Of a DNA stretch of 64,000 nt, positions 14,013-48,275 are shown piece by piece. The position numbers and the translations under genes are program-made. The notes beneath the pieces are model-generated. The model was not told the DNA's origin. It searched no databases and worked only from the letters and a program-made list of their open reading frames with translations. The DNA is from Lepidodermella squamata. Taxonomy: Eukaryota > Animalia > Gastrotricha. The stretch's first letter is position 1, and each line of letters opens with the position of its first letter. Location: assembly GCA_047495785.1 (NCBI GenBank), contig JBLDXI010000011.1:992001-1056000 (forward strand). Reading direction: 5' to 3'.

Positions 14013-14447
14013 GGAAATCTTGTAGTGCGGCCTGGCACGCGATCAACGTCATTCATTAGAACTTTCTAGTAGCCTCACAGTCGCGTGCCAGGAAACCCTT
14101 CCCGCCAAACTCACCATTTATAAGCAACCGTTTTACGTCTACTATTTGGCTCAATAAACAGCTAATTCATAAATACGCCTTTTTTTATTACTACATACTA
14201 CAATCTAAACGTTGGACAACGTCGGATGCTCGTCGGACGCATTTGTGAAAGCACCATGAAAACACGTGGCAGCGGCACGTGGTGCATGAGCTCAACGTGG
14301 CACTTTTTCTGCGATTTCGTTTATTATCAGCATGTATCATTTTATTTCGTGAATTATAAAATGGGTTTGCTCAGAGAGTATGTTAGTGATGAAGAAGAGA
14401 ATGAGGAGCAGTTATTGCAAGACCTCTCTGGTGTAAACGATGTAAAC
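14013..14447 (+). repeat. 435-bp direct repeat (8 bp flank + LTR + 245 bp flank); second copy at 19675-20109
   Basis: Direct sequence identity at an offset of 5662 bp. Confidence 0.92.
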
Positions 14448-14609
14448 CATTTATAAGCAACCGTTTTACGTCTACTATTTGGCTCAATAAACAGCTAATT
14501 CATAAATACGCCTTTTGTATTACCACTACATTTTGGTGGCCACTGGCCTGAACTCCGCTTCTATTTTTTTACTCTTGTTGTTTCTTGTTGTTGCTTTTTC
14601 TCACCTCCG

Positions 14610-15947
14610 ATGGTTACCCGTCGCGTTGCCGCTGGTAGGGGTAGGGGGCGCCGTGCCCCAGTTGTCGTGGCTGCTCCCGTTGACCCTGATGCCGTTGTGG
14701 CCCCGGTCGCCGCTGGCCCACCGCCGCCGCCCGTTCGCCGCGGTCGCCGTGCCGCCGCTGCTGCTGCTGGTCTGGCTGCTGGGCACCCGCCTGTTGCTGC
14801 GGACCCGCTTGAGGCTGGCGTCGTTGCTGTTGTTGAGCCCCTGGCCGCGCCTGTTGCCGCTGCTGCGGCCGCGCCGGTCCGCCTGCGGAAGCCGCCGAAG
14901 TTCCAGCCCGGCACTGATCTGAAGTTGTACTTCGACCAATTTCGATGCTGGGCGACCTCCGTCTATGATGATGCGCCGATGATGCTCGCAAGATCGACGA
15001 ACTCTTGACAGCTGTTGATCCGCCGACCTTCCGAGTCCTCGATTCTATTTACCGGCATGAGCATGCCATCACTCTCCGTCGTCTCTGCCATCAGGCCCTG
15101 ATGGATCTGGGCCTTGTCCGTCAAGCTGCCATCGAGCGCGCCCACTTTCGTCGCATGGTTCAGCAACCTGGTCAATCAATCCCAGCCTACGTCATGGCGC
15201 TTGAGGAGAAGGCTGAGCTGGCATTCCCCGATCAGACCAGTCCTGTTCGTCGCCAGCATGTTCTGGAGCAGTTCCTCGACGGCCTGTCAGACGGAACAGT
15301 TCGTGTGCAGTTGCACCGTCAGCGACCTGCCTCGTTGCCTGAGGCCGTGACAATTGCCCGTCACGAAACTGACGCTCTCGCCGCTGCCGCCTTGGGGCCG
15401 AGCCAAGCCGTCCTACCCGTGCTCGCTGCCGCGCCTGTCGTTACGCCCGTTGTTGCCCCGACACCGGTCACTGTTGCCGCTCCGCCTGCGTCGTCTTCGA
15501 CTTCGACGGCTACCCTGGTCCCGACGGCTTCGACGACGTCTGTCGCTGCACCGCCGGTTGCTAATGGCGAGTCCCATCAACAAGTCCGCGCCTTTGGCCA
15601 CGGCCGCAACGGTCGAGGCCAGGGTTCCCGGGGTCGTCGCGGTATGGCACCCGCGTACGGCTCCCGGGGCAGGTATGTGCCTTGTAGCCATTCGTGTTGC
15701 CATCATAATAACGATTATTCTTCTCACGCGCCACGCAACGGCTATCAACCGCCTGATCACGCCGCCCACGATTCAGCCGCGCCCAATCGCCGATCCGACC
15801 CGCAACGAGGCGGCCTGTCCCGGCTCCCGGTACAACTACGGTGTCGATCGATCTGGTCGCCGGCCCGACTACCATGCTTGCTACCGATGTGGACTCACTG
15901 GTCACTACGCCCGCAGCTGCCCAAATGGGGGCGGCTGGCGGCAATGA
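14610..15947 (+). CDS. gag: Gypsy gag (two apparent 1-bp frameshifts, near 14980 and 15820)
   Basis: KPPKFQPG, MHR-like QQPGQSIPAYVMALEEKA, QFLDGL and CCHC knuckle CYRCGLTGHYARSC. Confidence 0.8.
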
Positions 15948-18900
15948 CGCCCCTGCCCCAGCCGATCGAGTTCCTGGGGGCGAAGGCAGTCGATGGGCCC
16001 TCAACATTGGCACGCCAGCTTTACGACTGCCGCGTCAAGATCACCATCGCTGGCGTCCCGTTCCTTGCTCTTATTGATACCGGTGCCACCACTTCGACAG
16101 TTTCTTCCCAACTTATCGACTCGTTACACTTGTCCAGTTCGCCATCTCAGTCACCTTTCATCGCCACCGTCGACGGCTCCGTCGTCCCTGTAAACGGTAA
16201 GGTCAATTTAACTTTCAATATTGCTGGCTTACCGTTTACACACGACTTTCTTTCTGTTTCCGAATTTTCGCCTGACGTCATTCTTGGTTACGACTTCCTC
16301 GCGCGCCACTCCGTGCTGATTGACTGCCAGCACCAATGCCTGTATCTGGAAGGCCGCTGCGCTCCGATTATTCAGCCTGCCCCACGCCGGTCACGACCAC
16401 TGTTCGAACTTGCCGAGAAGTTACGCGCCGCTTCTTTCCAGGCCGTTCACTCTGATCTTACGCCCGATCAGGCCACATCACGCGATCAGCTCCTCGCCGA
16501 TTTCGCCGACTTGTTTGACGGCACGATTGGTCGCACGAACCTGGTTGCTCATCGGATCGAAACTGGTAACGCAGCACCAGTGAAGGCCTATCGCCGCCAT
16601 TTCAGCCCGCTCGAGCTGGCCGAGATCAACCGCCAGATTGACGAGATGCTAGCCGCTGGCATTATCGAGCCGAGTAACAGCGCCTGGTCGTCTCAGATCT
16701 GCCTCACCGACAAGGCTGATGGCACCAAGCGCTTCGCCATCGACTACCGCTGGCTCAACGCCGTCACCAAGAAGGATGTCAACCCGTTGCCGTTGCAGTC
16801 GGAGATATTCGACTTCTTCGCCGGATGCAACTTCTACTCGGTCATCGACCTGAAGTCGGGCTACTGGCAGTGTCCGGTCGCCGATGAAGACCGTCCGAAG
16901 ACAGCGTTCACGTCACATCGAGGCCTGTTCCAGTTCCGTATGCTCCCATTTGGCCTGTGCAACGCCCCGGCGACTTTCCAGCGTCTAATGGAGCAGGTCA
17001 TCGGCCCGGATTTGCTCTACCGGAACGTCATCGCCTACCTGGACGATGTCATTATCTTCGCGAGGACTTTCGACGAACATGTTCAGGTCCTTCGCGGAGT
17101 TTTGAATCGTCTCAGGAAATCTGGTCTGAAATTACACCCTAAGAAGACTAATCTGTTTTGCTCCTCTGTCCGCTTTTAGGGCGCATTCTAGGCCGTAGTG
17201 GCGCTGTTTCCGCCGATCCTGTCAAGGTTTCGGCTATCGTCAACTTCCCGCCGCCGATGGACGCCTCCGAGTTTCGCCGCTTCTACGGCATGGCCAGCTA
17301 CTTGCGGTCCTTCGTGCCGCACTTCGCCGCGATCTCGAACGACCTCACCGAGCTGCTGAACGCGGACGTGTTCCAGTGGAACGATCGACACCAGGCGAGT
17401 TTCACGGCTCTGAAGAAAGCGATCGCCGCCGAAACGGTGTTGCAGAGCCCACGTTTCGACCGCCCGTTCCGCATCTCGGCTGACGCGTCCGATTTCGCTC
17501 TTGGCGCCATGTTGTCACAACTCGACGACGACGGCAACGACTGCCCTGTAGCCTTCGCTAGCCGCAAGATGACGCCCGCTGAGACTCGGTACCCGACAAC
17601 CGAGAAGGAATGCCTCGCATTGGTCTGGGCAACTCAGCAGTGGCGTTCCTACATCTGCGGCCAGCATGTGGCGTTGCTATCGGACCACAAGCCGCTCTCT
17701 TTCCTTCAAACAGTGCGTGAACCGTCGCGAAGACTGCAAAGGTGGATCATCTGGTTAAGCCAATTCAACTTCGCTATCGAGTATGTCCCTGGGAAACTGC
17801 AGCTCGTCGCCGACGCCCTTTCTCGTGCGCCGACCTCCTCGCCCTGCGACGATGTGATTGACGAGTACGCCTTTCCGCCGATCGTTCGCGCCATTGACCT
17901 CACCGCCGAGTACAAGTTGGAGGTCGAGACTGTGCGCCAGCTTCAACTCGATGACCCCGTCATGGGACCTACGCTGCGCGCTTTGGCCGCCGATCCGCAT
18001 CGCCGACCGCGAATTACCGGCTGCACTCGACGATCACGGGCCTTCAGCAACAGTTGGCACCGCATCGTCGAGCTCAACGGTATATTTTATTTCATTGTTG
18101 GCGGAAAAAGATTGCTGTTGCTTCCCGGAGCATTACGCTCCGAGATTCTATTTGTTTTGCATAGCTCACCGACCGCCGGCCACCTTGGGATCAAGACTAC
18201 GACAGACCGCGTTCGTGCCGCCTTCTACTGGCCAGGTATGGGTGACGACATCCGCCGATTCTGTCTGGCATGCGAGCCGTGTTGTCGCGCCAAAGCGTCG
18301 AACCGCAAGACCACCGCGCCGCTTCAACGAGTCACGGCGAGCTACCCTTTCGAAGTCGTGGCAATGGATATTCTGAAGTTACCGCCGACCAACCGAGGAT
18401 ACAACGCCGTCCTCGTTGTGACCGACCTTTTCACGAAATGGGCTGAGGTTTACCCGCTTCGCGATCAGTCTGCCGCCTCTGTCGCTCCACGCATCGTCGA
18501 CTTCGTCTGTCGCTACGGCATCCCGTCGAGCTTGCTGACTGACCAGGGCGGGCAATTCGAATCCGAGCTGACCAGCCGGCTGTACCAGAACCTGGCGCTG
18601 AAGAAGATAAGGACCGCGGGTTATCATCCCAAAACAGATGGGTTTTGCGAGCGTTTTAACCGAATTTTGTTAACTATGTTACGATGTTTCGCAGATGCGG
18701 AGTCGAACTGGGACCTCTACCTGTCGCCGTTGTTGTTTGCCTACAGGTCCGCTACTCAGGCGTCCACTGGTTTCTCGCCCTACGAGATGCTGTACGGTCG
18801 GTTGCCCGTCCTGCCTGGTCATCTGCTCGTCGGCGAGGTCGTCTTCACGCGGCTACGCCACAGGCCGCACGTTTCCGCGTTACGGAGGTTGTTGCGTCAA

Positions 18901-19566
18901 GTTTGGGACGAGGCCGCAGCCAATATGGATGAAGCCCACCGCCGCGAGAAAGCGTACTACGACCGATTCACTGCTACGTCTCGCTTCGAAGTCGGCGACC
19001 TTGTCTGGCTGAAATCGCCACCGCGTCGCCCGAAACTTTCACCTCGCTTCACTGGGCCATACACCGTTGTCGATTGCCTACCGAACGGCGTCAATTACCG
19101 AATTCGGCGATCCGACTCAGACCCCCCGTTTGTTGTCAATGTCGACCGGTTGAAACCCGCCGCCCAGATTGAAGAGTGGATGCTGCCGCCTGCTCCGTCT
19201 GCTGCGCCGGAACAGCCATCCGCCTCCGCCCAGGCGCCAGCGATCCAGCCGCCGGACACACCGCAAAAACCACAACGCCCTGCTCGTGAACGCCGCGAAC
19301 CCGACCGGTACGGCACCGTTGTCCCTTCAAGCCAAATCGAGGCTCCGCCGTCGCCATCGACGTTGAGTTCGGCGTCAGACGCGACCTGGTCACCAAAGGT
19401 TCGCCGCGTCCTCGACAACAGTTCTCAACTCTTCAACCGCCTCTCTGAAGCATTCCAGCGCCCTTCGCCAGAATCTACTATTTTTATTTTTATTCTCGCT
19501 TTTTCAATTGTTTTATTTTTCTGTCTATGTTTTATGGTCCTGGCGTTTTTAGCTGTGGTATTTTAA
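15920..19566 (+). CDS. pol: Gypsy pol: protease-RT-RNase H-integrase (one frameshift near 17175)
   Basis: ALIDTGA, YLDD, DASDFALG, HHCC zinc motif, D..D35E, GPY/F module RFTGPY. Confidence 0.9.
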
Positions 19567-21866
19567 GCCGATGTAACCTTCTCACTCGTTTGTTGTTTGC
19601 TGCTTAAAAATTCTGTTTAAATACCATTTTGTTGTTTGCTTTAATATTTGTAACTGCCTATTCTTTTAAAAGGGGGAAATCTTGTAGTGCGGCCTGGCAC
19701 GCGATCAACGTCATTCATTAGAACTTTCTAGTAGCCTCACAGTCGCGTGCCAGGAAACCCTTCCCGCCAAACTCACCATTTATAAGCAACCGTTTTACGT
19801 CTACTATTTGGCTCAATAAACAGCTAATTCATAAATACGCCTTTTTTTATTACTACATACTACAATCTAAACGTTGGACAACGTCGGATGCTCGTCGGAC
19901 GCATTTGTGAAAGCACCATGAAAACACGTGGCAGCGGCACGTGGTGCATGAGCTCAACGTGGCACTTTTTCTGCGATTTCGTTTATTATCAGCATGTATC
20001 ATTTTATTTCGTGAATTATAAAATGGGTTTGCTCAGAGAGTATGTTAGTGATGAAGAAGAGAATGAGGAGCAGTTATTGCAAGACCTCTCTGGTGTAAAC
20101 GATGTAAACGATGACCAAATCGTTGATCCTGAAAATGATGAGCCCGCGTCAACGACGAGAAAACGAGATCACAGGCAAGTTTTGTCGCTGATTGGTATCG
20201 CCCAGGGCATGGTTTAGGCGAAGAACGTGCTTTCGGTCATGGCAAGTCGCCGTGGTTCTAAGCTGTATTCGCTCAGACGTTCTGCTCAAAAGTGAGGCAA
20301 GCGAGCAAAGCGATCACCCAACCTATCTCTACAGCAACTAGAAAATGCCTACAAAACTTATGTCGTCGTCGGCGCGTCAAAATCCCACTCGCGATCCTGA
20401 ACTTCATTCGCGAAATTCTTGCTTATAATAATTCCGAATCAAATGAAAAATATTCAGAAATGATTAAAATAAAATAATGAAATTTTTAAATATATGTTTT
20501 TTCATTTAATTGACCTTCACATTATTTTTGCGGGGTTTGCAGCCCGACGGTTTTTGGCGGTTTGGCGGTTTGGCGGTTTTCGGCATAAACCTTAACCTGT
20601 CCGCTGTTCGCTGTTGTTAGAAGTTGTTGCTGTTACCTTCTTGAGCATTTTGCTACGACATGACAGTCACTTAAAGACCAGATAAGCTATCTCGTAGTGA
20701 AAATTGCTGTTTCCAGTTACTGATTACTAACATCTTGCTTTGGCCGATGGATGGAAGCAGCATTTTGATAGCGCTTGGTTCAGATATCGTTCATCTCGCT
20801 TGATCAATACTGAAGTGCTTTTTGTGCAAGTAGCTACGTGTCAGCGATTATACTAAACGCTTGTTTCTCAGCCTGGGAATGTCTTCAATTGCTGGTATCA
20901 CTAATATCGGCTTTTGCGCCCAAGCTTGGCCATCAGCATTATCACCATTGTCATTGTTTAATTGGTTTTGCTTCAATAAAGGCAAACCAGCTTGCAGAAG
21001 TCTGAGCTAGGAAGTGTTAATGGCTGCGGGCATTTTGTTTTTCATCTAGCAAAGCCAGGGTGATAGACTGCTGCTATTAGAAACTTGAATACTCAATTAA
21101 CCTGTATGGCATCTATCATGCGTTTCAACTTGATTCTTTCAATGTTCTGTAATACTGCTTCTCTATTAACCTTCTCAATGACCAGAGTCAACTATCAACT
21201 ATCAACAGTTAGTGATAGTTGAATGTCATTTGAACTCAATCTAAAACCAGGTTTAACTGATCAAAATCTTGTTTTGCTTGGAAGAAGACTTGATCTCACT
21301 TAGATCCACAAAGATTGGTGCGCATTGTTGTCTTTCTTGATGAACAATGACTTACTCGCGAGACTTATTGCCATCAACCGGAATGGAATCTGCATCGTAA
21401 TGATTGAAGAGTATGGATTTTCAATGGGGTCCTGTTGCCTTGTCCCTAAACCCTGCTCCTTGCGTTGATTAAATCATTTTTATTAATATTGAAAATCAAA
21501 TATTTAGATGAACGCGTTTAAACCACTGTGTTTAATTGTTTTATTCTTCGGCGCCGTCTCGGCGGCCGTGTTTTGTATTGATAAAACAGGTTATTTCATT
21601 CCGTTACTTCTCCACAAATGTTAATCTATATCGGTTTTTAGAGGAGAACCTGGCCGCCTGTGCTGTGGGCGAGGGCCCTTGTGGGCCTTGGTGCCTAACT
21701 GCTTCTGCAACCACTTCACCTAGTGCAACTACTGCTGCAACCACTGTACGTAGTGAAACTACTTCTGCAACGCATTAATTCACGGGATTCGCCGGATTCA
21801 GTATGTTTACTTTCTTAACGGTCGAATTCGAATTTATTTGGAATGTATCAATTATAGAGATCCGAC

Positions 21867-22501
21867 ATGATTTGGTCGATTTGCTCGAGCTCCTCCTGAC
21901 CGCCGTCTCCCTGTTAATTTTTGGATTCGCAATTGTCATCGGCGCCATCACCGGCGTAAAAGCCTGGTGGGACGGGCGGCGAGCGGCGGGCCAGCTCGTT
22001 GCCGCCGCAACTTCGGGAGCACTGCAGGCAGTCGAAGCGGTGCAACCACTCATCGACCGAATCTCTATTCCTGTCGAGGCGATCGCTGCCATGCAGCCCC
22101 AGCTGGAGCGTGTGCTATCTACGCAGCCGAAGTTGAACAAAGAGCTCTCCAATCTCCTGCTAAGCCAAGTCAACCACGGCGGCAGTACGCCCCACCTCCG
22201 TGGGCGAACGGAAGTCGTATCAGTCCCGCTACTTGGCCAATCCCGCTCTTCTAGAAGCGGCTGGAAAATAGTAAGCTTTATTGCCTAGTTTTTATCGCAT
22301 GTTTGCATGTGCATGTCATTTTCAAGTCGAACACTTCGCAAACTGTTCGCTGAAGAAATACGAAAATTGAAAATACGAATTACGAAGATGAGAGATCCAA
22401 AGATGAGAGTGAAAGATCCAAAGAAGATTGATTCGATTGATCCAAAGACGTTTGATTCGAAGAAGATTGATTTGAAGAATGAAAGATTTTCAAGACGATG
22501 A
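21867..22501 (+). pseudogene. Small membrane protein (N-terminal TM, helical middle, DPK repeats), frameshifted
   Basis: TM LLLTAVSLLIFGFAIVIGAITGV; candidate intron GTAAGC..TTTTCAAG (22271-22326); C-terminal DPKxx repeats. Needs two 1-bp corrections. Confidence 0.4.
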
Positions 22502-23292
22502 AATGATGCACCAAACTAATGCTGTTTTCTCTTTATAGGTTTCTTGACTACTTATTCTGAAAGTAAGTATTTGAAATTTAATTGATGCAGCCAGGCATGG
22601 TTGAAGCTTTGTCGATGCAGCCAGGGAAGTTTTTAACATCAGCGCTTGTGTACTAATGCTGGGTTTTTTTAATTTTAATCACGTGCAGTTGTAGAAATTA
22701 ATTGTCGTTTTAGATGATATTATTTTACTTATTTTTTCTATAACGCTGAGGCGAATAATCTGGATTTACTCATCGGATTCGGCGCATTGATTGCGGTTGC
22801 TTTGTGTTGCTTGAAGGGTGTAAATTTCTGGATCAGGCTGATAAATTAGTATTCGGATTTATTTGGAGTGTATCAATTATATACATCCGAAACGAGCCCC
22901 AATATCGGTGCAACACAGTGGTTCGTTGTCTATTAATCTGATAGCGAGGCGATGTAACGTATTGCCGTTTTTTAGAAACAAATTTCTGATTGTCTTGCAC
23001 GAGAGCCAGTGGTACCCGCGAGAAAGGGCGATGAAACGCGCTGCTCAACCGATCTAGTATGCCGGGGTTCACTCCGGATTTCACTGTTTCAACTGATCTC
23101 ATTCATGGTAATCTGCCGTGATTACAATTTTCTGATTACAATTGTAACATTTTTTGTTCGCCTAGATCATCAAAGCCACGTTGGGCAACTGCTTGGTTAC
23201 GGGACAACTGGAATTTTATGACCTATCGTACTTCTTCTCATTGATTTTAAGCTGTTATTTACAATGAAAACAACGGAAGTGATCAAATAAAG

Positions 23293-24848
23293 TTAATTTA
23301 TTGATTCAAATTCGTCCTTATCTTCGTCGCTTGAATCATCGTCGCTTAAATCATTCACAATATCAAAAATGACAGCTCGTTCGTCAAATCTATTGAGATC
23401 ATTTCCAAGCACATCACGCCGAATCGGGTTTACAAAGCGACAAAATTGTAGAGGGTGACCAAGTTGTTGAAACAATGTAAATTTGTCAACAGCTTCAGTT
23501 TTGACAAAACACTTGAGATTTTCGAGAGATATTTGAGCATTCAGGCGGCCGCGTTCATGGTACTCATCACTAGTCATCACTTGCCCGCATCCTGAATGAA
23601 AACTGCTGAAACAAGCTGGGTCTGATATTACAAATTGAGCTTTCGAAGGATTCGAGTTGGCATTTTCAACCCGAGAATTTTCTTTTATTGCATGCTTTCG
23701 AACAGGCACGCTCATCGTAGCATATTTTCTAACGGAATAAATAATTTTCAGTAGCAAGTTGTTAGCCACATCCAGAACAAGTAGAGAGATTGCTCCAAGT
23801 AACTTCACTACGTACTTGAAAAGAAAGCTCAAAATCAACAGCAGGAATAGTAAAGCTGTAAGGTACAAACTTTTGTGGCCACCGCTGGTGTATACGATAA
23901 GAAATCCGGCAATGCGCAAATATACACCCATCAAGCATGAAAATCTAGTGTTTTCAATCGGCTTCGAAAGATAGAATAATGTAAAACCCACGAATGCCGA
24001 TAAGATCAGTGAAATGAACACAAAATTGACACAAATTTGTCGAATGTAAGCAGCTAATCGGTGCAAAGCTAGAGTTGAGCTTAAAATAGTTGCTATGAAC
24101 GCTGATGGCTTATTGTTTCTGTAGCTCGAAGAAAAAAATCTAACAGAGCAAAAAACGAAAGCGATTATCGACGCTAGTACGGCCAAGATGGAACCAGTTG
24201 AATAAAAAAAGAAGGGCCTCTCCGCCAGGTAAGGTGAGAAAAATACTAGTGCTGAACCGATCAAAATGAAAGCTATAAAAGAGCGAGAGAAGGGCATGAA
24301 TGTGTAGGAGATTTTGTATTTCGAATCAAAGAAGCAGACGGCAAATTGAACTCGGCGGTATGGGTCAACAGCAAACTTCGAGTTTCCCAACAAACGGTCG
24401 AACATTATTGATTTCGAATAGTCCAGGACTGTATCCATAACGTTCGAAATTGAGCGCGTGGCATTTAAACAACTGACAGTAATAAATTCGTCAGTATCTT
24501 CTGCCACCGAGATCACGACTGGTTGGGGAGATGCATGCGAAGAATCTAGGCGAATAAACTGAACCTAAATGAGGAAGTTATTTCAAATTTAGACTCGAAT
24601 TAAATCTTCAATAGATAACTAACTTGACCATGCTGCCCGAAATCCAACAGTTCGTCCTGTTTGACAGGATTGAAAACGAAAACGTCAATGCTGTTAATCC
24701 CTGGCTCGATGACGGCTGACAACGAATCGGAAGAGCCAATTTCATAGCGATTGATTGAAACAAGCCCTAGAACTGGTTCGCCAAGGCACGAGAGAAACAA
24801 CAACAGCGACATGACTAGGAGCTGAGAACTGTGACTATAGGCTGACAT
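23293..24848 (-). CDS. NEMP/TMEM194-family nuclear envelope integral membrane protein homolog (2 exons: 24848-24624, 24564-23293; ~498 aa)
   Basis: Signal peptide and multiple TMs. FFFYSTGSILAVLASII matches the NEMP FYYSTGxxxGxxASLL motif; MTSDEYHERG...SLENL...HPLQFCRFV matches the NEMP C-terminal LTEEEY..QG..ALEEL..SPKRFADFV. In-frame 59-bp GT-AG intron. Confidence 0.85.
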
Positions 24849-25134
24849 CCAGGGTCTCCAAATTGCGTACGGGTCGATAAATCGAATAAAAATTGCGTAA
24901 ATTCGAGCGAATTCGTATTGCTTTCGATCGATAGAAGGCGCAAATGAACGACGCCAAAACTATCACTCCGATAGCCAGTAGAATTGACACAACGACCCAG
25001 TAGTTGGGAGTTGGGAGTGATAACGGTAGTGACGAGTCAGATTTGACCGATGAAGTAGGGTGGATTTGCGCCTTTGGATTGCCCTTGTTGAACAGAAACC
25101 AGTTTTCAAACGAAAAATCCGGGGATGAATTCAT
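24835..25134 (-). CDS. 99-aa single-pass membrane protein with a basic tail
   Basis: TM WVVVSILLAIGVIVLASFICAFY followed by an R/K-rich tail with YxxPhi (YRPV). Overlaps the NEMP start by 14 bp. Confidence 0.55.
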   Translation of the reverse strand: MNSSPDFSFENWFLFNKGNPKAQIHPTSSVKSDSSLPLSLPTPNYWVVVSILLAIGVIVLASFICAFYRSKAIRIRSNLRNFYSIYRPVRNLETLDVSL

Positions 25135-25485
25135 TTGAAGCGATAAAATTAATTAAAAAGCCATGGTAATGCATTCAAATCTAGATTCTAGAAAATTGAT
25201 AAAAAATTGAGAAATTAGCCCATTGAAGAGAAATAAATTTAATCAAGTCACACGACAATGACGAATATAATTTTGATAAATAATAAATAATTTTTTTTGA
25301 GGTCTGCAAAACAATAATAAACAAATGGCCACAATAAATTTCTTTGAGCTCTGTCCAAGAATTATAAATTATTATCACTTCCGTTCTGTGAAGCTATCCT
25401 GATATTCGTGGAAAGCTGATTTTTATCGAACAAGCGTCGAAGTTCAGATCAGCGCCATCGGATGCTTTGTGAGAGTTCATCATCA

Positions 25486-28400
25486 TCATTCGTCGTCGCC
25501 GAAGTGGTCATCGTCATCGTCATCATCGGCGTCTTCAACATCATTAACATTCGCCCCCAGCATTAGATATTTCTGTCGAACGTCGGCTTTTCTCTTTTCA
25601 ATCTCAGGCTTCTTCATTTTTGAAGGAATCTCGCCAATTTTGTCGAGATAGGGCAAAGGTATAGCACCTACAAATCAAATTTAAATACATTTCGGAGACA
25701 GAAATATAAATGACCAAGCGCTGAATGAAATTCGATGAAAATAGGCAGACTCAGAATTAATTAGCCGAAAGATTTCAATCAAATAACCGATTTCTTGCTG
25801 TTCCAAATTTCGCAAAGTTCGCCTAATACCATGTTCCTATTGCTAGGATTTGTGCTCAAGATCAAATTCGACCTTAACTACTAATTTGGGAGAAATTTCA
25901 ACTCACCTTCTTTCACCCATTTGAACATGTCCTGCATTTTCTTGGAAGTGAGACGGAGTTCACTAGCCACTTTAGGCGGATAGGCCATGGTTTTCTTATA
26001 GGTGAACTTCTTATTGGAATCCGTGGCGTGAAACGCTTCGTAAGGCGTTTTGTAGTCCCAATCTTGCTTACCTTCGAGCAAGTTGTAATTATCGGTATAC
26101 CTATACCAGGAGAAGCGATTAAAAAGTCCACGTTGGCCTTTCGCGACAGGTAGATCGAATCTTTCTGTATAACTGGGCCCGTGTTTCGCGTTATGAAATT
26201 GACCGTGCTTCATTTCGCGAATGATGAAAGGCGGATCGCCGGCAATCGATGCACCCAAAATGGCGTCTAAAAAAATACAATTTGAAAAATAATCGAAAAA
26301 ATCCCGACGAATTTAGCAAACAACTATCTAAAAATTTTCAATGATCACGAATCTGTAAATCAAGGCGAGCGAGCGATCTAAGAACTAAGAGTCGACAATT
26401 CTATTCGATACAACGATGGATTCTACCTCCAGAAAGAATCTTTTTAGTTAAGTGAACACCTGAAGTAATCCGGGACAAATACAAGTAGTTATGCCCGTGA
26501 AGACGAGCAAGAATCAGCGGTGATCTATGTCCAGGCAAGATTGTTGCTAGCTATGGCTGCTGTTCTGTTGGCTACGGCATGATTGATCACCAGGTGAAAG
26601 AGTACGAAGTCCCTGTCGCCGACGACGGCCTGTGCATCCTCGAGTATGAATTGCAGCTGCAGACACGGCGATTACGCCACGGCTGTTATGTACGGACTAG
26701 TCATAACTTCCAGACTCGCCTTTTGGCATGAAGAACAATGAAGCACGGGCAAAGGAACGTGAAAGAAACGAATCAGATTCGCGGCCAAATTGCATTCTCA
26801 GTCGATTCAATCCGTGTTTTAATCGAAATTCTTATCTTTACCATCCTTATCCGGCTTCGATTTAGCCAACGAGGGTAAGAGAGGTAACCATTTCAGAAGA
26901 AGGAAGCGAATAGCCCAGCTGTTAAATTCGCCGGTCTCAACTCGGAAACGTGAAGTCAAAGCAATTTCGCTAAAATATCCCGAAAAATTAAGGCGGATTA
27001 CGTGACAAACGGCCGCAAAAATTCTCGAATATTCGCCGATTTTCGAAAGTTGAATAACTGATCGAATTTCATCGATAATTCCGATTTAAATTCCGAGTGC
27101 AGTTTTCCGATTTCCGAAAAGACGCTTTCATCAGATTAGAACAAGTTCAACATTTCAGACCGGAAATTAGAATGAACAATCGGTTCGGTTTCTGCCAAAC
27201 GGTAGTCAGTGAAACGCATTCTTCTGTTTATTGCGAGGAAGTTGAGCAGGGGGTTCGGCGGCAGGGTTAATTTGCAAGCGACGCGCCTCCGGTGTTAATT
27301 AAGATCATGATAACAGCCTGGATAAACCTTTTACGCCCTAGGTCATCAGGTTCGAACAACTCACTCGGCGTCAGGAATGAATTGAGTTAAGGATTAATTC
27401 CGCTGTCAAGCTACTATTCAAGCTACTATGAACTTCTATGATCAACGATTCAATTTCGAATAATTTCGATAATCCTTAATTATTGGCTTGAATTCAACAA
27501 TAACTTCAAGTTCAGAATTACTTCTCCAGTCGGTTGGGAATGCCAAGGTGCGAATTCGTCGCGCATTCCGTTCAACGGCGCTATGAATTGTGTCGCAGGG
27601 TTGCTGAGAATGTCCGACCTAAAGGCAGGTACAATAAAAGCATGTTTTAATAGAATAAGCACGATTCACTCATCTCTCCCGCACTTGAAATAGCCAGGTG
27701 CCACGTACAGGTGCTAACTATGTACTAATATTGGTGGCAAGTTGCGGATCATTTCCGGATCAGAACTCGGTTAATTTCCCAGCAAAAATATTGAATTAAT
27801 CATCGGCCTCCTTTTTAAAGCAGGTCCAAACTTAAAAGTTCCCACAGAAAGCCTAGGACAACCTACCTAAATAAGTCAAAACCAAGTTGCACTATAATTG
27901 AAGGGGACCTTGATATTTTCTACTAAACATAACGTCACAAGAAAGTGCTTGCTTGCTTACCACAAAAAAGCGATGTTCAACTGTTCGCAAGGCTCTTCCA
28001 GATGCTTTGGCCTCTTGAATGGCCAAATACAGAAAATTCGGAAAATAAGAGTTCTTGTTTTGACCTAAAAAAATTCAGAAAGTGCAAAATCTCAACGAAA
28101 AATTGAGCTAGCTCCAACCTCCAGCGCTATCTGACCACAAGTAGACATGTTCGACATCAGGACTCAAGGTCTCCGTTAAATACCTAAAAGGAAAGCAGAA
28201 TAATTTTGCGCTCAAGCCATTAACACCTACTTTAGAATGCAAGTTCCAACTTCAGATACGCCTTTTTTCCTAGAAAAATATAAGCGCTTGATGAAATCTC
28301 GCTTAATTGTAATTCCAATTACCCTTCATACTCCTCGAATAAATAGTGAACGGCTTCGCGGGTTACCACATTTAAAACGGTAATATCCCGAGTCTGGAGC

Positions 28401-29504
28401 TTCGAGTGATACCTAAAAAACATAATGATTCAAGCATTTTGAGAATCGAACTATTGAAACTTGCTTAAATTGACAGCAGGGAGTTTCGAGATTTTTCATG
28501 AAATCAAAATTGATGACAGCTATTTTGCCGCCACTATTCTTCGCTCTTTCCACATCCTGAGCTAAAATCCTCCTAGCGCGATGCTTTCGCTTCATGTGCT
28601 TCTCCAGCAGCTTTTTCAGCCGTTCCTGGTTCGGCTTCGAGTCTGTTTTCGATAGGGATTCAAGGCGCGCGCAAAATTTGCATTTATCAACCTGTGCCAA
28701 CAGAATGAGTTAAATAATTTACCCCATTTATAAATAATCAATTAAAGAAACCTTTGGTCTTTGGAAAGCGAGTTTCGGAAAACATCGTTTGAAGATCTGT
28801 TTGAAGGTCGTAAGTGAAACGGGCTGATGCACATGCGACTTGCTAGATGTCGGCGCAGTGCTAGCGAACTCTCTTTGCAGCTTTTCTTCCTGCTCAACGT
28901 ATTCGCGATGAAGAGAAGCTAAAGAATGAAAGGAATCGATGTAGTCCTTGTCCGAAGAAGCTCTTTTGTAGTGCGATGGAAGCTTCTCAATGCTCATAAT
29001 GAATGAAGTAGCGGAATCAAGACGTTCTTTAGAGATCTTCCCAACGCCTTTTTTCTTCCCGCGGCCATCCGGAGCAATAACAGCTCGAAACTTTGTTTGC
29101 TTATTCATCAAGGTGTAATTAATGACATCGAAGGAGATTTGCAGCGCATTTGTAAAAAAGTAACGGCAAACCTATAACCGAAAGCTTTAAATATAAAATG
29201 TAGGAATGATCACTATACCGACCGGCTCGTCATAGGGCCTGTTATGCATTGTCTTGTCCAAGGCAGCTTCTGATGGCAGTCGGTACCGGTAATAGCAACG
29301 CTGTTTACCGTTCTTCACTGTCATTTGCGAAGGAATTGACACAAAGCGAGCGATGAATTGCCTGCGATCTTTGATGTCACCTGAACGCCAGAATTCCTTG
29401 CACAGCTTTTTGATTGCTTCGTCTGTGAACTTGGTGTAGCATTTTTCCGGACACTTGCAAACATTGTAGTCCGGCTTTGCAGGGTCAAAGTCCATTTTAT
29501 TCAT
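25486..29504 (-). CDS. Sola1-type DDD transposase, 10 exons (~620 aa)
   Basis: Hand-spliced exons 29504-29223, 29171-28752, 28691-~28465, 28412-28323, 28269-28231, 28183-28119, 28064-27961, 27618-27522, 26266-25907, 25667-25486 give CKCPEKC..FW..VC..DGRG..PSHY..PKVDKC..FDFMK..SDSAGGQNKN..GHSQQPCDTIH. Phases are consistent if intron 3 uses a GC donor (AA|GCAAGT). Confidence 0.85.
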
Positions 29505-29838
29505 CACGTGTGTTTTTATCGTTTATATAATGTGCCACTGGTGGTGCGGTCGTGAGGTGGCGAGGTGGTATTTTTTTGTACTCTTGCCTCACTGTTGTCA
29601 AATGATTTGCCCCATTTATGCACAATAATAATCGCGCCTTGCCGTATGTGTACCATAAAAGTCCGCCCCACATTCATACTGACCTGAGCTATCGCAAATG
29701 ATAATGGGCTTTTATAATCAAAACAACGCAAGTCGCGTCTTCTAATTACCCCTGATGTGACACAAAAAGCAGTTGCGACGACAGGAATACGATATATATG
29801 ATATAAAATGGGTAAACTGTGTGTTTTCGTTTTGTAAA

Positions 29839-31809
29839 ATGCCCGCTGCTTACAGTTTTGAGGTGAGCGTTGACTTGGACTCGATAAAGCACCGTTTGGA
29901 GCGGATGCCAGCTTCGATTACTGATGTGCAGATTCGAACTCGTAGAGCGCGAGCTGAATTGGCGCAGACTCTTGCTTTGAAGACGCTACCTTCTACATGG
30001 CCATTTTCGCAGATAATGAATGGGGCCATTATGAAATCGGCCAAATTAACCATCGAGTATGATGACATTGGGGTTGTGGAAATCGAAGTACCCAGCGAAA
30101 AGCCAGCTAAATCTAGGGAAAGCGCAAACAATCGTGCTAAAAGGTTATAGAAATTGTCAAGTTATCGCATTTTATTAAATATTTTTTACTCTAGTCTCGT
30201 GATTCTGGGATTGCGTTACGGAATTAACGCCAGCAAGTTGCTAGCAATGCGTCGTTCCATTGGTTTCGAGTCAGTGTCAAAAGATTTATTCTATAAAGTT
30301 AGGAACGAGCTGGCTGTTTTGCACCCTATAAGCACGATAAGCGACGGAAAGGCGGCTTTCCGATCGGTATTTTCGCTTGCCAGTACTTGGGCCCGTAAAG
30401 GTGAGTTGAAACCGTCGGTCACTAACGACATTCGACTCCAGGTATAAATAAATTAAAATTCGAGGTAGAATTGAAACTTTATAAGTAACTGTTTAAGGTG
30501 GATGGGATGGCGAGCCGGACGAATTACGCTGACCCCCTTGTCACCGCCTATGTCTGTGTGGCGAGCAGGAAAAGGAAAGCCGGGATCGATAATGAAGACC
30601 AATTGGCTGTCTATAATGATAACGAGTCAGCGAGTAATTTTCGAGAATATTTACAACCCCCTGTCGACGAGCTTGTAAAACTGGTCGAGCAAGGCATAAC
30701 AGTCGACGGAAAAAGCTACAGTTTCAGACTGCTGACCTGCTGTGATTACCCGGCGCTGGTAAAAATATTTGGCTGTGGTCATCAGTCGAGTGAAAATCGT
30801 TGTGTTATTTGCGAGATGAGCGTCCGAAACCCAACTTTGCCAGCTAAAAGACGCAAGTTCGATGAATATTCGGCCGAAATGGCTGGGAAGCTGGGGTGGT
30901 CGGAAGATTTCGGGCCTATGATTCGGCTAAGCGAGGACAAATTGCTGATAATACCGGACTTCTTCCATCTTCAAGTCAATATTGCGAAACCACTGATTAC
31001 CCAGGTTAGCATAGCAAGCGGAAAACTCTTCGAAAAGACATTTCATCCGAAAAATAACTTTAGGTTCTCGGAAAGTTGAGAGCGTTCAGTCAACGCGAAG
31101 CAATCAAAAAAGTCATCGAATTCTTGAAGATTGGGTCGAAATAAAAATCATCAGCGGCTTCTTCAAGACGGATCAAGCGAACTCCGAAAAACTCGAAGCT
31201 GTCTATTGACGTCCGCCGAACTTTGAAGGGGAAAGTCAAAGTCAGCATTAAAAATTCGAATCACTACGGCGTTGTTCAGGTAGAATTGTGGTAGAGTGAA
31301 AATAAAACTTAATTTTGGATTTAAAATTTCAGGCATTCAAGCGATTTACTGAACATATGAGCCAAAATTCGTTGACTGATGCGTTTTTCTTGCCAAAAAA
31401 TTGGCAGAGAAAGAAAGTTTTCGGAAAAGTGAAGTCATCTGCCCGAATCAAAGAAAACGACTTTCTTACTTCTTTAGCCGGTCTTCGGAAGCTTTGCATC
31501 GCATCATGTGCCGCGTTTGACGATATCAAGGAAAATCGGAAAAAAGGAAAGGGCAAGTTCTTCATGCCGCGTTATGCATCGCTCTGGAAGACGCATGTTG
31601 GTCCTGTCACGTCATACGCACATCTCCATTCGAGCCACACATACGAGCTGTTGAAACGAAATATTAATCTGGCCGCTTTGTCCGCTGAAAGCATCGAACT
31701 ACTCATCAAAGAGCTGCGCGCAACAGTTAGCAGTCAAACTTCTAATTTCTGGCCGTTGTCTTCTCAGCTCATGAGAATTCAGAACATGAAAGACAATCTG
31801 AAAATTTGA
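29839..31809 (+). CDS. RAG1-core/Transib-like DDE transposase, 5 exons; in-frame TAA at 31142 (or a compensating frameshift pair)
   Basis: Exons 29839-30143, 30195-30441, 30498-31004, 31064-31279, 31333-31809. Motifs VDGM, CCDYPAL, CVIC, PDFFH, YAHLHSSH and SAESIE parallel RAG1 CDGMG, YDEK, CTLC, DALH, YFHKTLAH and SEGNE. Confidence 0.75.
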
Positions 31810-31943
31810 TACTTCAATTTTGTCAGCTTTACTTCTCATTTCAAGTTTTAATTTTTAAAAGTAAAATTCGAAAATGTAGAAAGAATGTTTTTTATTCAGC
31901 CTCTACTCTTGAACTCATCATCATCAGATAACACGGTAAAATA

Positions 31944-32674
31944 TCATCTTTTCGTGTACACATACTCATCTCGAGCTCGATCGAAATGCAATTCATATTT
32001 ATCTTGTGCGGACCAGACGAAAGAAAAAAGCCCGGCTCGGCAGAGCTCATCGAGTTTCGAAATTTGCCGGCAGATTGCGTTTTGGCTTCTGCCAAGTTCA
32101 GCATCAAGGTTTTTATCGGACAGAGTAATCCGCATCCAGAATTTTAATAAGCTTTTGGGAGCAGTCGCCAATTTACCGCGTTTCGTGTAGAAGGCGAACA
32201 CATGTCGCAATCGATTCCGGTCGCTAAAGGTCCACTCAACGCGTGAATTCGCGGCATGAACTATATAAATTCGGACTATTTAGGACTCTCAGTGTCAAGC
32301 ATTTCCAGATACTAACCTTTGTCAAACCGCTTTGACACCGCCCTGATGTAGTTCCAAGAGCCATAACTTGCCGTAGAAACCGAAGAGTCGAGCGTTGTAT
32401 CGCTGATTTCGATGGGCTCGATTTGCTCGGCTTGATGCGCGCCTGCTTGTTCCTGCTGTCCAAATTCCTCATGAAGAAACGATTCATCGCCTTCATTTTC
32501 CGATAAACCGGTTTCAGACTGCTGATTATTTTTCGATTTGGCGAACATTGATCGAATATCGGCCTGTTTTTCAAAGCGATTGTGCTGTTGTTGCTGATGA
32601 TGAGCAGCTCTGCGCTCACTCCTGCGCTGCCTTTTTCGCCGATTGCGTGATCGCGATTTCGCAGTTTCACTCAT
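31944..32674 (-). CDS. Myb/SANT-like protein with an Arg-rich N-terminus (2 exons)
   Basis: A phase-1 intron (G|GTTAGT..ATATAG|TT) joins MSETAKSRSRNRRKRQRR.. to EWTFSDRNRL...AELGRSQNAICRQISKL, a Myb helix-3-like LGRS..AI motif. Confidence 0.6.
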
Positions 32675-32848
32675 TTTATTCAGATGAATTTCGCAAATAG
32701 CTCGAAAAACGAATGGCTTTACGACTGATAAAAATAACAAGTGAACGACTGCACGACCTCACCACCGCACCACCAGCGCGCATAGCTAAACATAAGACTA
32801 CTACACACATGATATATAGCAATAATAATTGCACATGAATCATCTAGG

Positions 32849-33143
32849 TCACTCTGCAAAACCCGGACTTGTATGAATAACACGCTTCCCAATCTTAGCC
32901 CGAACCATCTTGGCAGGCCGAATAATTGTGCCATCTCGCGATTTCTGAGCTCGCTTGAGGAACTGCTTTCCACTGTTTCTCAGCTTGAACTCGCGGTCTC
33001 TATTACGGGACTAGAAATGCAATAATGACAAGAGATACAAATTGCTGGAAATTCAAGCTTACCTTTCTCACTCGTGGATCGACATGAGAGGGAAGCTTCG
33101 GTTTAGCCAATTCGCGTAAATGTCGTGGCAAAGACGGTGCCAT
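32849..33143 (-). CDS. 80-aa basic ORF resembling the N-terminal module of Sola1 transposases (2 exons)
   Basis: Intron 33011-33062; KLRNSGKQF..G....PAKM resembles the RNxGKxY..G..V.AK motif that precedes CxCxxxC in Sola1 proteins (family motif recalled, not searched). Confidence 0.55.
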
Positions 33144-33510
33144 ATCGACGCCTGCATTTAATAAATTTCCTACAAAATACAACAACACAAATTTATATTT
33201 ATTGAACATTCGGCATTGAGATGTCGGTTATTGAGAAATACTTTCCATTAAGTTCCATGAGAATAATAACAAGAAAGCGATAAATCTGTTCTTGAGCTAA
33301 AACAGGTTGGCATCCATGATGATTGAAAGGATCTATCGTTATCAGAGATCAGTTGATCAGAAAGCCAATGATAAAAAAATTTATTATAAGAAACGAAAGG
33401 CAAGATTTTAAAGTGACTAAAACGCAAGCAAGACGACAGCCAAATTATTTTCAAAACAGGCAAGAGAAACGTGATTGGCGGTGAAGGTAGCTGCTAGCTG
33501 CGAGACTGGA

Positions 33511-35591
33511 TTAAGCGCGCCTCTGTCTCGTCGATCTGATGGGAAAGTTGGCGAGGTCTTTGGCCAACTGATCGGTCTGAGCATACTTCCGAGGATTATT
33601 CTCCTTATCGGTAAGAGCATAGACCATCAGATCGTTCTCCTGATTTACCTCGACCGGTGTAGGAGCAGTAGCGACCTTGCCTGACAAGAAAGCTGGCCAT
33701 TTCAGCCATATTGGGCGGCGAAATAAAGCAGCCATGGCTTCCTCACGCTTGCAAGCCCAATATGCATACGCTAGAAGTACATAACGCACAATCAGCACAA
33801 TTAGATGAGCGTCAAGGCCAGCATCGCTGATCGCCTCAGAGGATTGCGTAATGTACCATTCTATCGCTGCCATGGGGAAGAAGCTAGACGTGAGCAGGCA
33901 ACGTTTGAAGGTAGCGGAAAAGAAAAACAGCGACCAATAAAACAACGTTTGGGTCTCAAAAAAATCCTCAGTGAAGACTGGAAACACTTGCGATAACGCG
34001 GATTTAACAGCCGCCGTTTCAAAAGAGCTCTCGAGGGCTTTTTGGGCCGATTGGTAAGACTGAAGTACGGACTTTTTGAAGAGCAAGTCGACAAAAAAGT
34101 GTTGAGTGTACTCGCTTACAATCTAAATGAGAATTATAAAGCAAATAAGTACAATTTATCCGTCAGAATTTAATACACACTAACCGGGGTCCAGGGCGAT
34201 TTCGTGTAGTTGAGGTAGCAGCAGACGGCGCTTGCATCGCTATAAGCTTCAAGGAGAGAGCTCAAAGCTTCATGATTTCCGCTAACCTTTGGCAGCAGCT
34301 TAGCTATAGTTGGTTTTAGTGGCAGTTTGTCATCGGCCTTGGCTTGGTAACAATTATACAGCATCGAGGCTAAATGGGTCCGGCTGTCTTCAGGCAAAGG
34401 CCATTTGCAGCCATCAGAGGCAGTGAAGGTCAGCCAAGCCTCGACACAAGCCTTGCCGGTGCCTTTGTATTTTTTAAGGCGATCCATCGACCGAGAACCA
34501 GGCTCTTTGTCGCGAAAAGTGCAGCCCTTGAGTTTATCATCGACCTCCTCCGACTTGACACCATCAAACACAGAGACGGATGACGGTTTCATTGATGGTA
34601 ACTCGGCTATTTCATCATTATCATTATCCCCCGAGGGCTCAAGTCTTCCTGCTCCCGGCTCCGCCTTCTCAAACTTAGCGAGAACAGCATTGACAGTGGA
34701 TAACACATCCTTGTTGTCTTTGTCATGCTTAAGAACAGCTGCCAGGGTTTCCAGCACATTGAGCGCGCTCTGAGTGTTTGTAGCAGCTGTGGTGGTCTTA
34801 GTCCTAGCTACAGAAGTTGACGATCTGGACGGGGATGGAGTGACGCTGGCTCCGACGACGATGGAAGACGGAATAGTCGTATCTGTTTTTACCAATGGTT
34901 CGGTAAACCAATTGGCGCGCTTGAACAGTTGCTTTGCATTTGGATGAAGAGCAAAGCAGCACAAATACTCGGACTCTCCGTACAACCAAGTGAATGTCGG
35001 AAATGAAACTTCGTCGACTTTCGCTGCGCAAGACTTTAGGGTATCCGCCTTAGGGCTGCAGGTCCCCTTGCTGTAGCAGTCGAACAAAGACAGTGCCCTG
35101 ACAACGCGGAGCGAAGTTTCACCTGAGCAACCACAGACGCCGGCGGTGCTTTCCATTAACTTCAACTGTTCAGTAAGGCAGGACCTGAGGTTAGCGTCCT
35201 TCAGCTGAGCAACCTTTTCGTAGAAGCGATGGCCATGCGAATACAGCAACTGCCAATCGGTCGCAATGGAAGTGGCAGGTGCTGCAGTTGACGCCAACTT
35301 GGTCGGTTTGGTTGCTGATGCCGTGGCGGACTTGCTGCTGGTTGCTTGCGTAGAAGTCGACGGGGATAACGTACTAACTGTCGTGTCAGCTGTAGCCGAC
35401 CCATCGTCTTCGTTATCAGCTTCATCACGTCCATCATCGCCGTCAGGTTGACCGTTTTCCTGTTCTTGCGGCTTTTGATCTCGCTTTAGGCGGATATGAC
35501 TGCGGAGCAAGATCGACTCAGGGACGGACTCTGAGGCGTCCTGTGCAATCAACCCAAAGATGAGCAGCACGGCAAGCGGAATAACTTGCAT
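33511..35591 (-). CDS. 672-aa membrane glycoprotein: signal peptide, RLKR furin site, Ser/Thr stalks, two Cys-rich repeats, C-terminal TM segments (2 exons)
   Basis: The 492-aa and 191-aa ORFs join in frame through a 62-bp GT-AG intron at 34123-34184 (CCG|GTTAGT...CATTTAG|ATT). Confidence 0.75.
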
Positions 35592-36519
35592 ATCAATAAA
35601 TTTAGCCGATAAATCTATAAAAGTGGAAAATAACGACACAAGTATCAATTGTTTTATGCCTGCAAGATATAATGTTGCTGGCCAGGCTTCTTAAGACTTG
35701 TAAAGTGAGGGAGCGAGATAGCAAGCATCTGCCGACTGCTTAGCTAGTAAATGATTGAGGGATACTTCTGATCCATCTACTGTAATGAAAGCATCCAGCA
35801 GTTGGCCATGATGTCAATGCGCTACTACGATAGTTTCCCATCGTCGGGGCAATGTTTGCTTGGCATCCCAACTTTCTAATAATAATAATAATTTCGTTTT
35901 CAAAGCGAACTTCAAGGACCAGAAGGGCATGCCACTTGCTCTAACGCTAGGTCTTAACGTAAGTGAGAGATATGAACATCGTAAGACTGAGTTTGACTGG
36001 TGCAGTCTAGCTGACACTCCCAGGTTCCCAATTTACTATTTTGTAACGCCATTGATTGGTAACACCACCGATGGAGACTCGATCCTGGTTCCATCACTAG
36101 GACTTGAACCCAGTCCCGAGCGATATCCCCTCAGATACACAGTTGCTCATCGACCCAACTAAGCCACCGTGCCTCTTATTCTACCTACTCATCTCTGGCA
36201 CGAGTATTGAACTCCCAACTTGTAGGTATGGAATTGATTGTTATGGGAATTGGTTTCATTGTCATCGATTTCTGGCTAATTCAGCTGCAATTGCCAAGTG
36301 CCAAATGCTGCTATAAAACCAGACTGCAAAAACGATAACTGTAAAAATTTGCATGTTTGCATATTCTCGCCTCATCTGGGACGCCATCTTGGATTTTGCC
36401 TCTTTTTTGTTCCCTGTGAAGGTTAAAAGCCAGGATTTCATTTTATTTTTATTTTATCAAACATTTAAATATAAATTCACTCATTATTAATTATTTCTGT
36501 TTAAATTTGTTTTCGCGTG

Positions 36520-37060
36520 GTTTTCAGGCAGAAATTTGCGAGTGGGATTTTGACGCGCCGACGACGATGTGCTACCCTTTATCGAATTCGGTATGGTCCC
36601 GTACACGTTTGCGGCCTCAGAGAGTGTCCTCGAGAAGCTGAATGCGGTGCAACAACGATTCTGCTCAGCGACAGGGGCGAAACTTGTGCCACTGGGAAAA
36701 AGAAGATTCGTAGGAGTCATGACCTACCTATATAAAATGGTCGTGGCAGGTCGAGGGACCAAACAAGTCCGCTCAAAATTCAGGCGAATATTCAACAAGC
36801 GTGGTGTAACTCGAGCCGCAAAATCGAAGCATCAATATCAACTGATCCTGACAAAGCCGTCCACGCTTCGGTCCAACATCCAACCGATGGAAAGAATAAA
36901 CAAAATCATTCAAAAGTGGAATGAAATCCCGAAAGATTGTTTCCCGGCCACTGTCGACATTGAACATTGAACATTTTAAACTAATCTACTAATGATGAAT
37001 GACCTAGGGTTGTCGCTATGAACATCAGTGCGTGCCCGAAAGCTCATGTAAATAAAAAAA
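36520..37060 (+). mobile_element. 5'-truncated LINE (RT C-terminal end + A tail)
   Basis: LPFIEFG...KLNAVQQRF...YLYKM...WNEIP; AATAAAAAAAA at ~37050. Confidence 0.7.
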
Positions 37061-44625: not shown

Positions 44626-44793
44626 TTTTGGGCCCACTTTTGCTACTTTGGGCCCACTTTTACTACTTTGGGCCCACTTTTGCTACTTTGGGCCCACTTT
44701 TACTACTTTGGGCCCACGCAACTTTGGGCCCACTTTTGCTACTTTGGGCCCACTTTTGCTACTTTGGGCCCACGCAACTTTGGGCCCACTTTT
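44626..44793. repeat. Minisatellite, 18-21-bp unit TTTGGGCCCACTTTT(G/A)CTAC, about 8-9 copies
   Basis: Seen directly. Confidence 0.95.
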
Positions 44794-44802
44794 TAAATTA
44801 TC

Positions 44803-47739: not shown

Positions 47740-48275
47740 CGAGCAGGGAAAGAATCAAGGTAGGATCAATCTGTAACACCTAGTTAGAAACGATGCAAAG
47801 CGTATTATGAAAATCGGCATTTACAAAATTCAGACCATGATGACACTTTGTAAAGCAATTAATATCAACGCTTAAAAATAGGTATAACATAATGGACAAC
47901 GAGAGATCAGCATCTTACAGGTAACATATGAAGAAGCGCCATAAACATGTCAAGTCGAGTAGAAGGCATAAAATATATTCCGTTTCAATTTTGATGGATA
48001 TTAAAATTAATTTATACAAAAACGTCCTTCCGATGTTATAAAACTTCGACCTTAAAAATTAACGAAACAATTTAAATTTCGCGCTAGTGAGCACGCCGGC
48101 TGACCGATATCTAACGGTTCCCAGCAGCGACATGTCTTTTTTCGCTTTATATCATCAGAACTCTGCTAATAAACTTTCTCCGTTTGACCTGTACTTTTTA
48201 GAATGCATTGACCAAACTGGAAAGGCTTTCACCCTTGTTATTTCATCCTTTAGGAATTATACATTTTCAAATAAA

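Follow-up and report, generated by a model that had tools for sequence, protein, structure and literature searches.

A 64,000-nucleotide stretch of the genome of the gastrotrich Lepidodermella squamata (assembly GCA_047495785.1, contig JBLDXI010000011.1, positions 992,001 to 1,056,000; hereafter the window) was found to contain a mobile unit of 16,203 bp at positions 20364-36566 (~12.8 kb without a nested element), which was inserted as one piece into a LINE-like (long interspersed nuclear element) repeat with duplication of four bases. We consider it likely that this unit is a cut-and-paste transposon of the Sola1 type, belonging to a low-copy family, which carries membrane-protein genes as cargo; part of that cargo is probably old in the family, a NEMP-family gene may have been acquired by capture, and selection may have retained the cargo. 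The original prediction, of one mobile Sola-type unit with membrane-targeted cargo, gained support from the terminal inverted repeats (TIRs), the target-site duplication (TSD), an empty site and collinear diverged copies, the last of these for part of the cargo only. The coordinates of all features are collected in Table 1.

The ends of the unit were defined by a whole-window repeat search, in which 20363-20392 and 36538-36567 came out as a perfect inverted pair; this was read as a 29 bp TIR, with ATGT flanking both arms. The 29-mer occurred twice in the window and not at all in 100 shuffles. Inward of the 29 bp ends a weaker, AT-rich similarity extended for ~160 bp, on the left side to ~20530. 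The terminus proposed initially (36400-36421) lies subterminally, at the inner edge of this AT-rich similarity, and the true ends are 20364 and 36566. The ATGT duplication satisfied the consensus AWDT, which a Sola1 family of Rhodnius is reported to prefer as its target (PMC3845634), and not the strict form AWWT. Removal of the unit together with one ATGT restored an open frame resembling the C-terminus of a LINE reverse transcriptase, a modest resemblance in that 7/500, 121/500 and 287/500 shuffles equalled the scores that it gave with the window's three LINE proteins.

Sister copies and empty sites were sought in contigs of run X1, the sole run containing the stretch (0.88 of its words) and possibly the source sample of the window; all sister-copy and copy-number evidence given here comes from this run alone, and its contig depth is no strict copy number. 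Pieces in run X2 were of 21-36 bp only and were left out of the counts. One X1 contig contained an exact empty-site joint (20359 to 36567), at which four letters fit both sides, and a second contained a joint from 20360 to 36569 with one letter different; both are probably other copies of the LINE. Because the TIRs, the ATGT duplication and the X1 empty-site joint agree, we conclude that the 16,203 bp were inserted as a single piece. That the window instead holds syntenic host genes beside a stray transposase, with inverted repeats arising by chance, is barely conceivable: NEMP is normally a host gene (PMC7455189), but the perfect TIRs, the exact TSD and the exact empty site refute this explanation unless the window is misassembled.

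The unit sat at about full single-copy depth in X1, in which two contigs carried the TIR with loose, non-matching flanks before 20364, and no exact match to the 29 bp TIR was present in the metagenome contigs. In a further X1 contig the outermost 19 bp of the left TIR (to 20382) and of the right TIR (from 36548) were separated by just nine letters, possibly a 47 bp minimal derivative of the unit.

The 10 exons of the transposase spliced to a stop-free frame of 621 amino acids (aa) across eight GT-AG introns and one GC-AG intron. The latter (28413-28464, minus strand) was required for the frame to stay open. Introns in the gene models of the unit were mostly of 47-62 nt, one transposase intron being 1,255 nt long. 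A scan of metagenome contigs with an 11-residue transposase motif gave 18 loci (L001-L018), all 18 of which matched the spliced transposase core by tblastn (best E 6e-42, ~26 % identity over 446 residues); as these loci were preselected by the motif, the full-length alignments weigh more than the count. The family DUF7869 was above its cut-off in 5/5 scanned open reading frames (ORFs) of these loci, and a profile built from eight metagenome ORFs matched the core at E 7e-54, its three acidic motifs lining up with those of the core; the acidic triad falls at residues ~354, 428 and 475 of a 678-aa transposase reading. The metagenome loci encode single-exon DUF7869 transposases of up to ~820 codons. 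No match to the motif was obtained in viral contigs. A word-based protein search with one transposase exon and a three-exon read-through returned nothing, the method being insensitive, and relatives were found later by the motif search.

The 678-aa reading was obtained when the nested block was removed together with one AA, which brought the N-terminal module and the transposase core into one frame of 11 exons. The module (80 aa) matched the metagenome profile weakly at positions 217-258, just before the start of the core match at 269. It is the severed 5' part of the Sola-type transposase gene, which is split by the nested element. The transposase, initially described as apparently intact, is not so, because the 3,414 bp nested element splits the 678-aa gene; ATG 29504 lies inside that element, in frame with the core. 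An uninterrupted transposase gene, as in an autonomous Sola1, was absent from the unit, and the 621-aa frame from the ATG inside the insertion stays open. A product without the 72 N-terminal transposase residues could be made from this ATG.

The block at 29462-32875 points to an independent multi-copy element, because an X1 contig starting exactly at 29462 had a depth of 477, compared with 100-124 for most long neighbouring contigs. Its inverted ends are imperfect and start with CAT, not CACTA, and its transposase matched Pfam Transposase_21 weakly, below the cut-off (E 2.5e-4); no relative of this transposase was found in the PDB. An inverted pair at 29538/32776 was considered as the ends of the element and rejected in favour of 29462 and 32875. 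Stops at 21776 and 31144 in the window are sense codons in X1 contigs and may be new mutations, alleles or assembly errors.

The 672-aa membrane ORF, the 10-exon DDD frame, the 80-aa N-terminal module, the 99-aa transmembrane (TM) ORF and the 498-aa NEMP gene were all confirmed, as were their order and the 14 bp overlap of the last two. The description of a tight, co-oriented array was not confirmed, as a 3.4 kb nested element, which contributes a transposase on the plus strand and one further gene, lies mid-array and a plus-strand DM9 fragment lies in an intron. All four cargo ORFs were predicted to contain TM or signal segments. The NEMP gene matched Pfam PF10225 at E 8.6e-19 (68.6 bits, cut-off 28.7) over profile positions 9-242 of 249. 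A word-based protein search with NEMP, an insensitive method, gave 0/7998 candidates at E 0.001. No homologue of the 99-aa ORF was found in Pfam or PHROGs. The small TM gene placed earlier at 21.9 kb exists; what had been seen of it was merely the 3' part of a gene starting at 21508. Behind it lies a short low-complexity Lys/Asp repeat ORF (22389-22500, plus strand), which other contigs also cover.

The 672-aa protein is an orphan. Its first exon had 0 homologues among 1.84 billion representatives, and no relatives of the protein were found in viral contigs or PHROGs. Its two Cys-rich helical repeats are diverged, their global-alignment score being reached by 12/2000 shuffles, a weak result, and the repeat escaped BLASTP. 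Neither of two structure predictions was good enough to be searched for similar folds (mean predicted local distance difference test scores 40.6 and 49.7). The membrane ORF called a glycoprotein in the original prediction stands as a membrane ORF; 'glyco-' is suggested by its Ser/Thr-rich stalks, and a single N-glycosylation sequon is present. Unpaired acceptor-like sites were found upstream of two of three starts under a strict rule, too weak a signal to support operon-like or trans-spliced expression of the genes.

A dibasic site follows the signal peptide of the 672-aa protein, and the presence of this large type I orphan beside the transposase speaks for a virus-like element spreading between cells by means of an envelope-type glycoprotein. 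This explanation, related to the virus-like transfer suggested at the outset, is nevertheless very improbable. The unit has no capsid, polymerase or packaging gene; no ORF is left over for a capsid, polymerase, protease or packaging ATPase, and no integrase ORF is present, so that the features of a Maverick/Polinton are missing. Viral contigs and PHROGs contained no relatives except for a weak, hydrophobic match to NEMP, and the predicted secondary structure was all helical, with low confidence.

Evidence that the cargo is a trait of the family came from a 30,476 bp X1 contig (depth 56), pieces of which matched the large membrane gene at 33557-33666 and 33791-34125. Joints of equal depth tied these pieces to the N-terminal module (32914-32958) and to transposase core sequence ending at 29032, skipping the nested element and ~450 bp more. 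Because pieces of the large membrane gene, the module and the core are collinear at the same depth, this contig is, on sequence grounds, a diverged, internally deleted relative with the same gene order. The small membrane gene was covered by at least three other X1 contigs, and collinear joints connected its first part with its TM part. Forty of 62 differences were listed, and the 19 that came from other contigs within the coding exons of the small gene were classified: 16/19 were synonymous and 15/19 fell on the third base of a codon (binomial P 6e-5 for an expectation of one third), a constraint somewhat overstated by the 80 % identity floor, which favours conserved pieces. A family sharing these two cargo genes, the large and the small membrane gene, is likely on these alignments.

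Two simpler histories of the cargo were weighed against these data. A one-off capture, in which two Sola ends came to flank a block of ordinary host genes, a membrane-gene cluster together with NEMP, and carried it along once, the cargo serving the host and this NEMP being perhaps the only one that the host has, would suit a NEMP gene that is intact, keeps its intron and has no second copy at ≥80 % identity, in a unit at about full single-copy depth. It would not account for the second, diverged contig, in which the large membrane gene is tied to a Sola transposase, nor for the TIR with other flanks, and the strong divergence of NEMP (0/7998 at E 0.001) seems more in keeping with a rapidly evolving paralogue than with a sole essential gene; we regard this history as unlikely. 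The other history, in which a plain Sola landed first and the extra genes arrived later as independent insertions, in the manner of the CACTA-like element, the short repeat and the DM9 fragment, draws on the at least three later insertions present and on the transposon-rich surroundings, and could still apply to NEMP and the 99-aa ORF. For the cargo as a whole it appears distinctly improbable: the collinear linkage of the large membrane gene to the transposase in the diverged contig and the synonymous divergence of the small gene imply an old, shared cargo, NEMP is not followed by any visible poly-A tract, and the cargo genes are not enclosed by a long inverted pair.

Several observations weigh against a Sola1-type transposon family with shared membrane cargo. 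Single transposase exons and read-throughs were not recognized by Pfam, and no direct DUF7869 match was obtained with them. The correspondence of DUF7869 to Sola1 is presumed. In X1, no second copy of NEMP or the 99-aa ORF was present at ≥80 % identity (depth bins 101.5, 101.5 and 108.7, containing the unit's own contig alone), and no second full-length copy of the unit was seen among the contigs. The sister pieces are spread over different contigs, and none of the pieces listed tied the TIR to cargo at a second locus. All of the sister evidence derives from a single run, perhaps the window's own source sample. Finally, the small membrane gene has a stop in the window at 21776-21778, a sense codon in an X1 contig.

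Under the cut-and-paste Sola1-type explanation, which we prefer, genes would have been captured stepwise between the ends, and a Sola transposase, either the unit's own before it was split or that of a sister acting in trans, would have recognized the 29 bp ends and mobilized the unit in its entirety. The large membrane gene and the small gene of the left arm would be old family cargo under purifying selection, and NEMP and the 99-aa ORF a capture so far seen in this copy only. The cargo may give its carriers a cell-surface or germline benefit by which the element persists after damage to its transposase, the NEMP copy acting at the inner nuclear membrane of the germline. Vertebrate and fly NEMP proteins are reported to reside in the inner nuclear membrane and to bind BAF, Ran or Emerin (PMC4422613, PMC7455189), Ran and BAF being bound through a C-terminal region (PMC4422613), and NEMP is reported to be required for fertility in four animal models (PMC7455189). 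Because of these reports on location, binding and fertility, a germline benefit or manipulation appears by analogy to be the most likely role of the cargo. A more far-reaching version, to which we give a rather low probability, is a selfish germline Sola1 family, in which a diverged NEMP would remodel the germline nuclear envelope, or the unit would hold the host's only NEMP, and selected orphan surface proteins would bias transmission, making the unit a cut-and-paste transposon with a membrane-based drive or addiction module. The original prediction likewise raised nuclear-envelope access and drive as putative functions.

The unit represents a clean case of a probable eukaryotic cut-and-paste transposon that took several complete spliced genes along in one move, and its ends, its target duplication and the empty site can all be seen. 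If the cargo proves to be family-wide and germline-expressed, it would provide a way, open to testing, for transposons to acquire host-level functions or biased inheritance. What is new is the NEMP and membrane cargo, a giant Sola1 with an accessory gene having already been published (PMC12477816). Literature searches returned no paper on NEMP captured by a transposon, and searches on giant or accessory-gene Sola elements gave none with membrane cargo, as judged by titles or opening lines.

The unit also contains further sequences that are probably later arrivals, namely the DM9 fragment, which is covered by several further X1 contigs, the high-copy short repeat, for which no tRNA or Rfam family was called, and the degenerate stretch, against which the Gypsy and LINE proteins of the window gave no match by tblastn.

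Table 1. Features of the Sola-type unit and its insertion site (positions in the window)
Feature	Position	Strand	Evidence or remarks
Left TSD, ATGT	20360-20363	+	Identical four letters at 36567-36570; empty-site joint shares four letters
Left TIR, 29 bp, perfect	20364-20392	+	Window repeat search; shuffle test
Degenerate many-stop stretch	20560-21480	.	Resembles retroelements by eye only; other contigs contain pieces of it
Small type I membrane gene, three modelled exons, ~218 codons	21508-22270	+	Predicted signal peptide, Cys cluster, Ser/Thr stalk, TM helix, tail
Degenerate tandem duplicate of small gene's TM part and intron	22750-22950	+	Direct repeat D18; translation
NEMP-family gene, 498 aa, two exons, stop-free	23293-24848	-	Pfam PF10225; N-terminal hydrophobic segment and six more
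99-aa ORF, one strong TM helix	24835-25134	-	14 bp overlap with NEMP start
Sola-type DDD transposase, 3' part, 10 exons	25486-29459	-	Spliced frame; tblastn E 6e-42; profile E 7e-54
Decayed DM9-repeat fragment	26490-26730	+	Pfam PF11901 E 7e-7; antisense within 1,255 nt transposase intron
Nested CACTA/EnSpm-like DNA transposon, 3,414 bp	29462-32875	+	Imperfect inverted ends; 2 bp duplication AA
Five-exon transposase of nested element	29839-31809	+	Single stop at 31142-31144
Second gene of nested element, 224 aa, convergent	32674-31944	-	Second ORF of the element
Sola-type transposase, 5' part, 72 codons before nested element	32876-33143	-	Stop-free frame across nested element
672-aa orphan membrane protein, two exons, stop-free	33511-35591	-	Signal peptide, Ser/Thr stalks, two Cys-rich repeats, C-terminal TM
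High-copy short repeat, approximate bounds	35980-36170	-	SINE-like (short interspersed nuclear element) by eye; summed depth ~1800
Right TIR, 29 bp	36538-36566	-	Window repeat search; shuffle test
Right TSD, ATGT	36567-36570	+	Interrupted LINE-like frame resumes and runs to 36970

Adjoining the unit on its left is a Gypsy long terminal repeat (LTR) retrotransposon (14013-20112), with 438 bp of LTR sequence identical between its two ends and gag-pol in two frames, which is a recent insertion. Elsewhere the window contained two long intact LINE ORF2 frames (612-4046 and 8550-12056; 1144 and 1168 aa), each with a hydrophobic N-terminal extension, two long ORFs at 45126-47754 on the minus strand (391 and 474 aa) that resemble EnSpm/CACTA-type transposases by eye and had no Pfam match at E 0.1, and a tandem array of about nine copies of a 20 bp unit with a GGGCCC core (44605-44802).

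The notion that Sola elements carry a transposase only, given as background in the original prediction, does not hold in view of a published 21.5 kb Sola1 with an accessory gene and of published Sola2-Fanzor chimeras (PMC12477816, PMC3627910). Ordinary Sola1 elements share with the unit a 4 bp AWWT/AWDT duplication, TIRs of ~30 bp and a transposase of ~630-800 aa, but are reported at 1.5-2.8 kb in insects and at a mean of 5.4 kb in bivalves, whereas the unit has 16.2 kb, an 11-exon transposase and cargo (PMC3845634, PMC10294476). Closely comparable are Sola1-1_Ec32 and the other giants of Ectocarpus, which are likewise of the Sola1 type, far oversize (21.5 kb in their case), provided with an accessory gene and invaded by nested unrelated insertions, their transposase often being damaged and the elements moved in trans; the Ectocarpus accessory gene is a DNA-acting ParB-methyltransferase, in contrast to the four predicted membrane proteins, including NEMP, found here (PMC12477816). 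In the Sola2-Fanzor chimeras of dictyostelids, Sola ends and a 4 bp TSD also enclose a captured gene, and some members lack most of the transposase, but the ends are of Sola2 rather than Sola1 and the cargo is a nuclease (PMC3627910). Host or accessory genes between TIRs are also described for Pack-MULEs, giant EnSpm elements, Mavericks and Teratorn, of which Pack-MULEs differ in carrying gene fragments within 1-2 kb, and Mavericks and Teratorn in carrying their own replication and virion genes, none of which is present in this unit (PMC6431247). The mobile, CACTA-flanked sex-determining supergene of Takifugu is an animal example of fertility-related host genes moved with a DDD/E transposon; it spans ~100 kb and is described as having no TIRs found (PMC9191631), whereas in the L. 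squamata unit the TIRs, TSD and empty site are exact.

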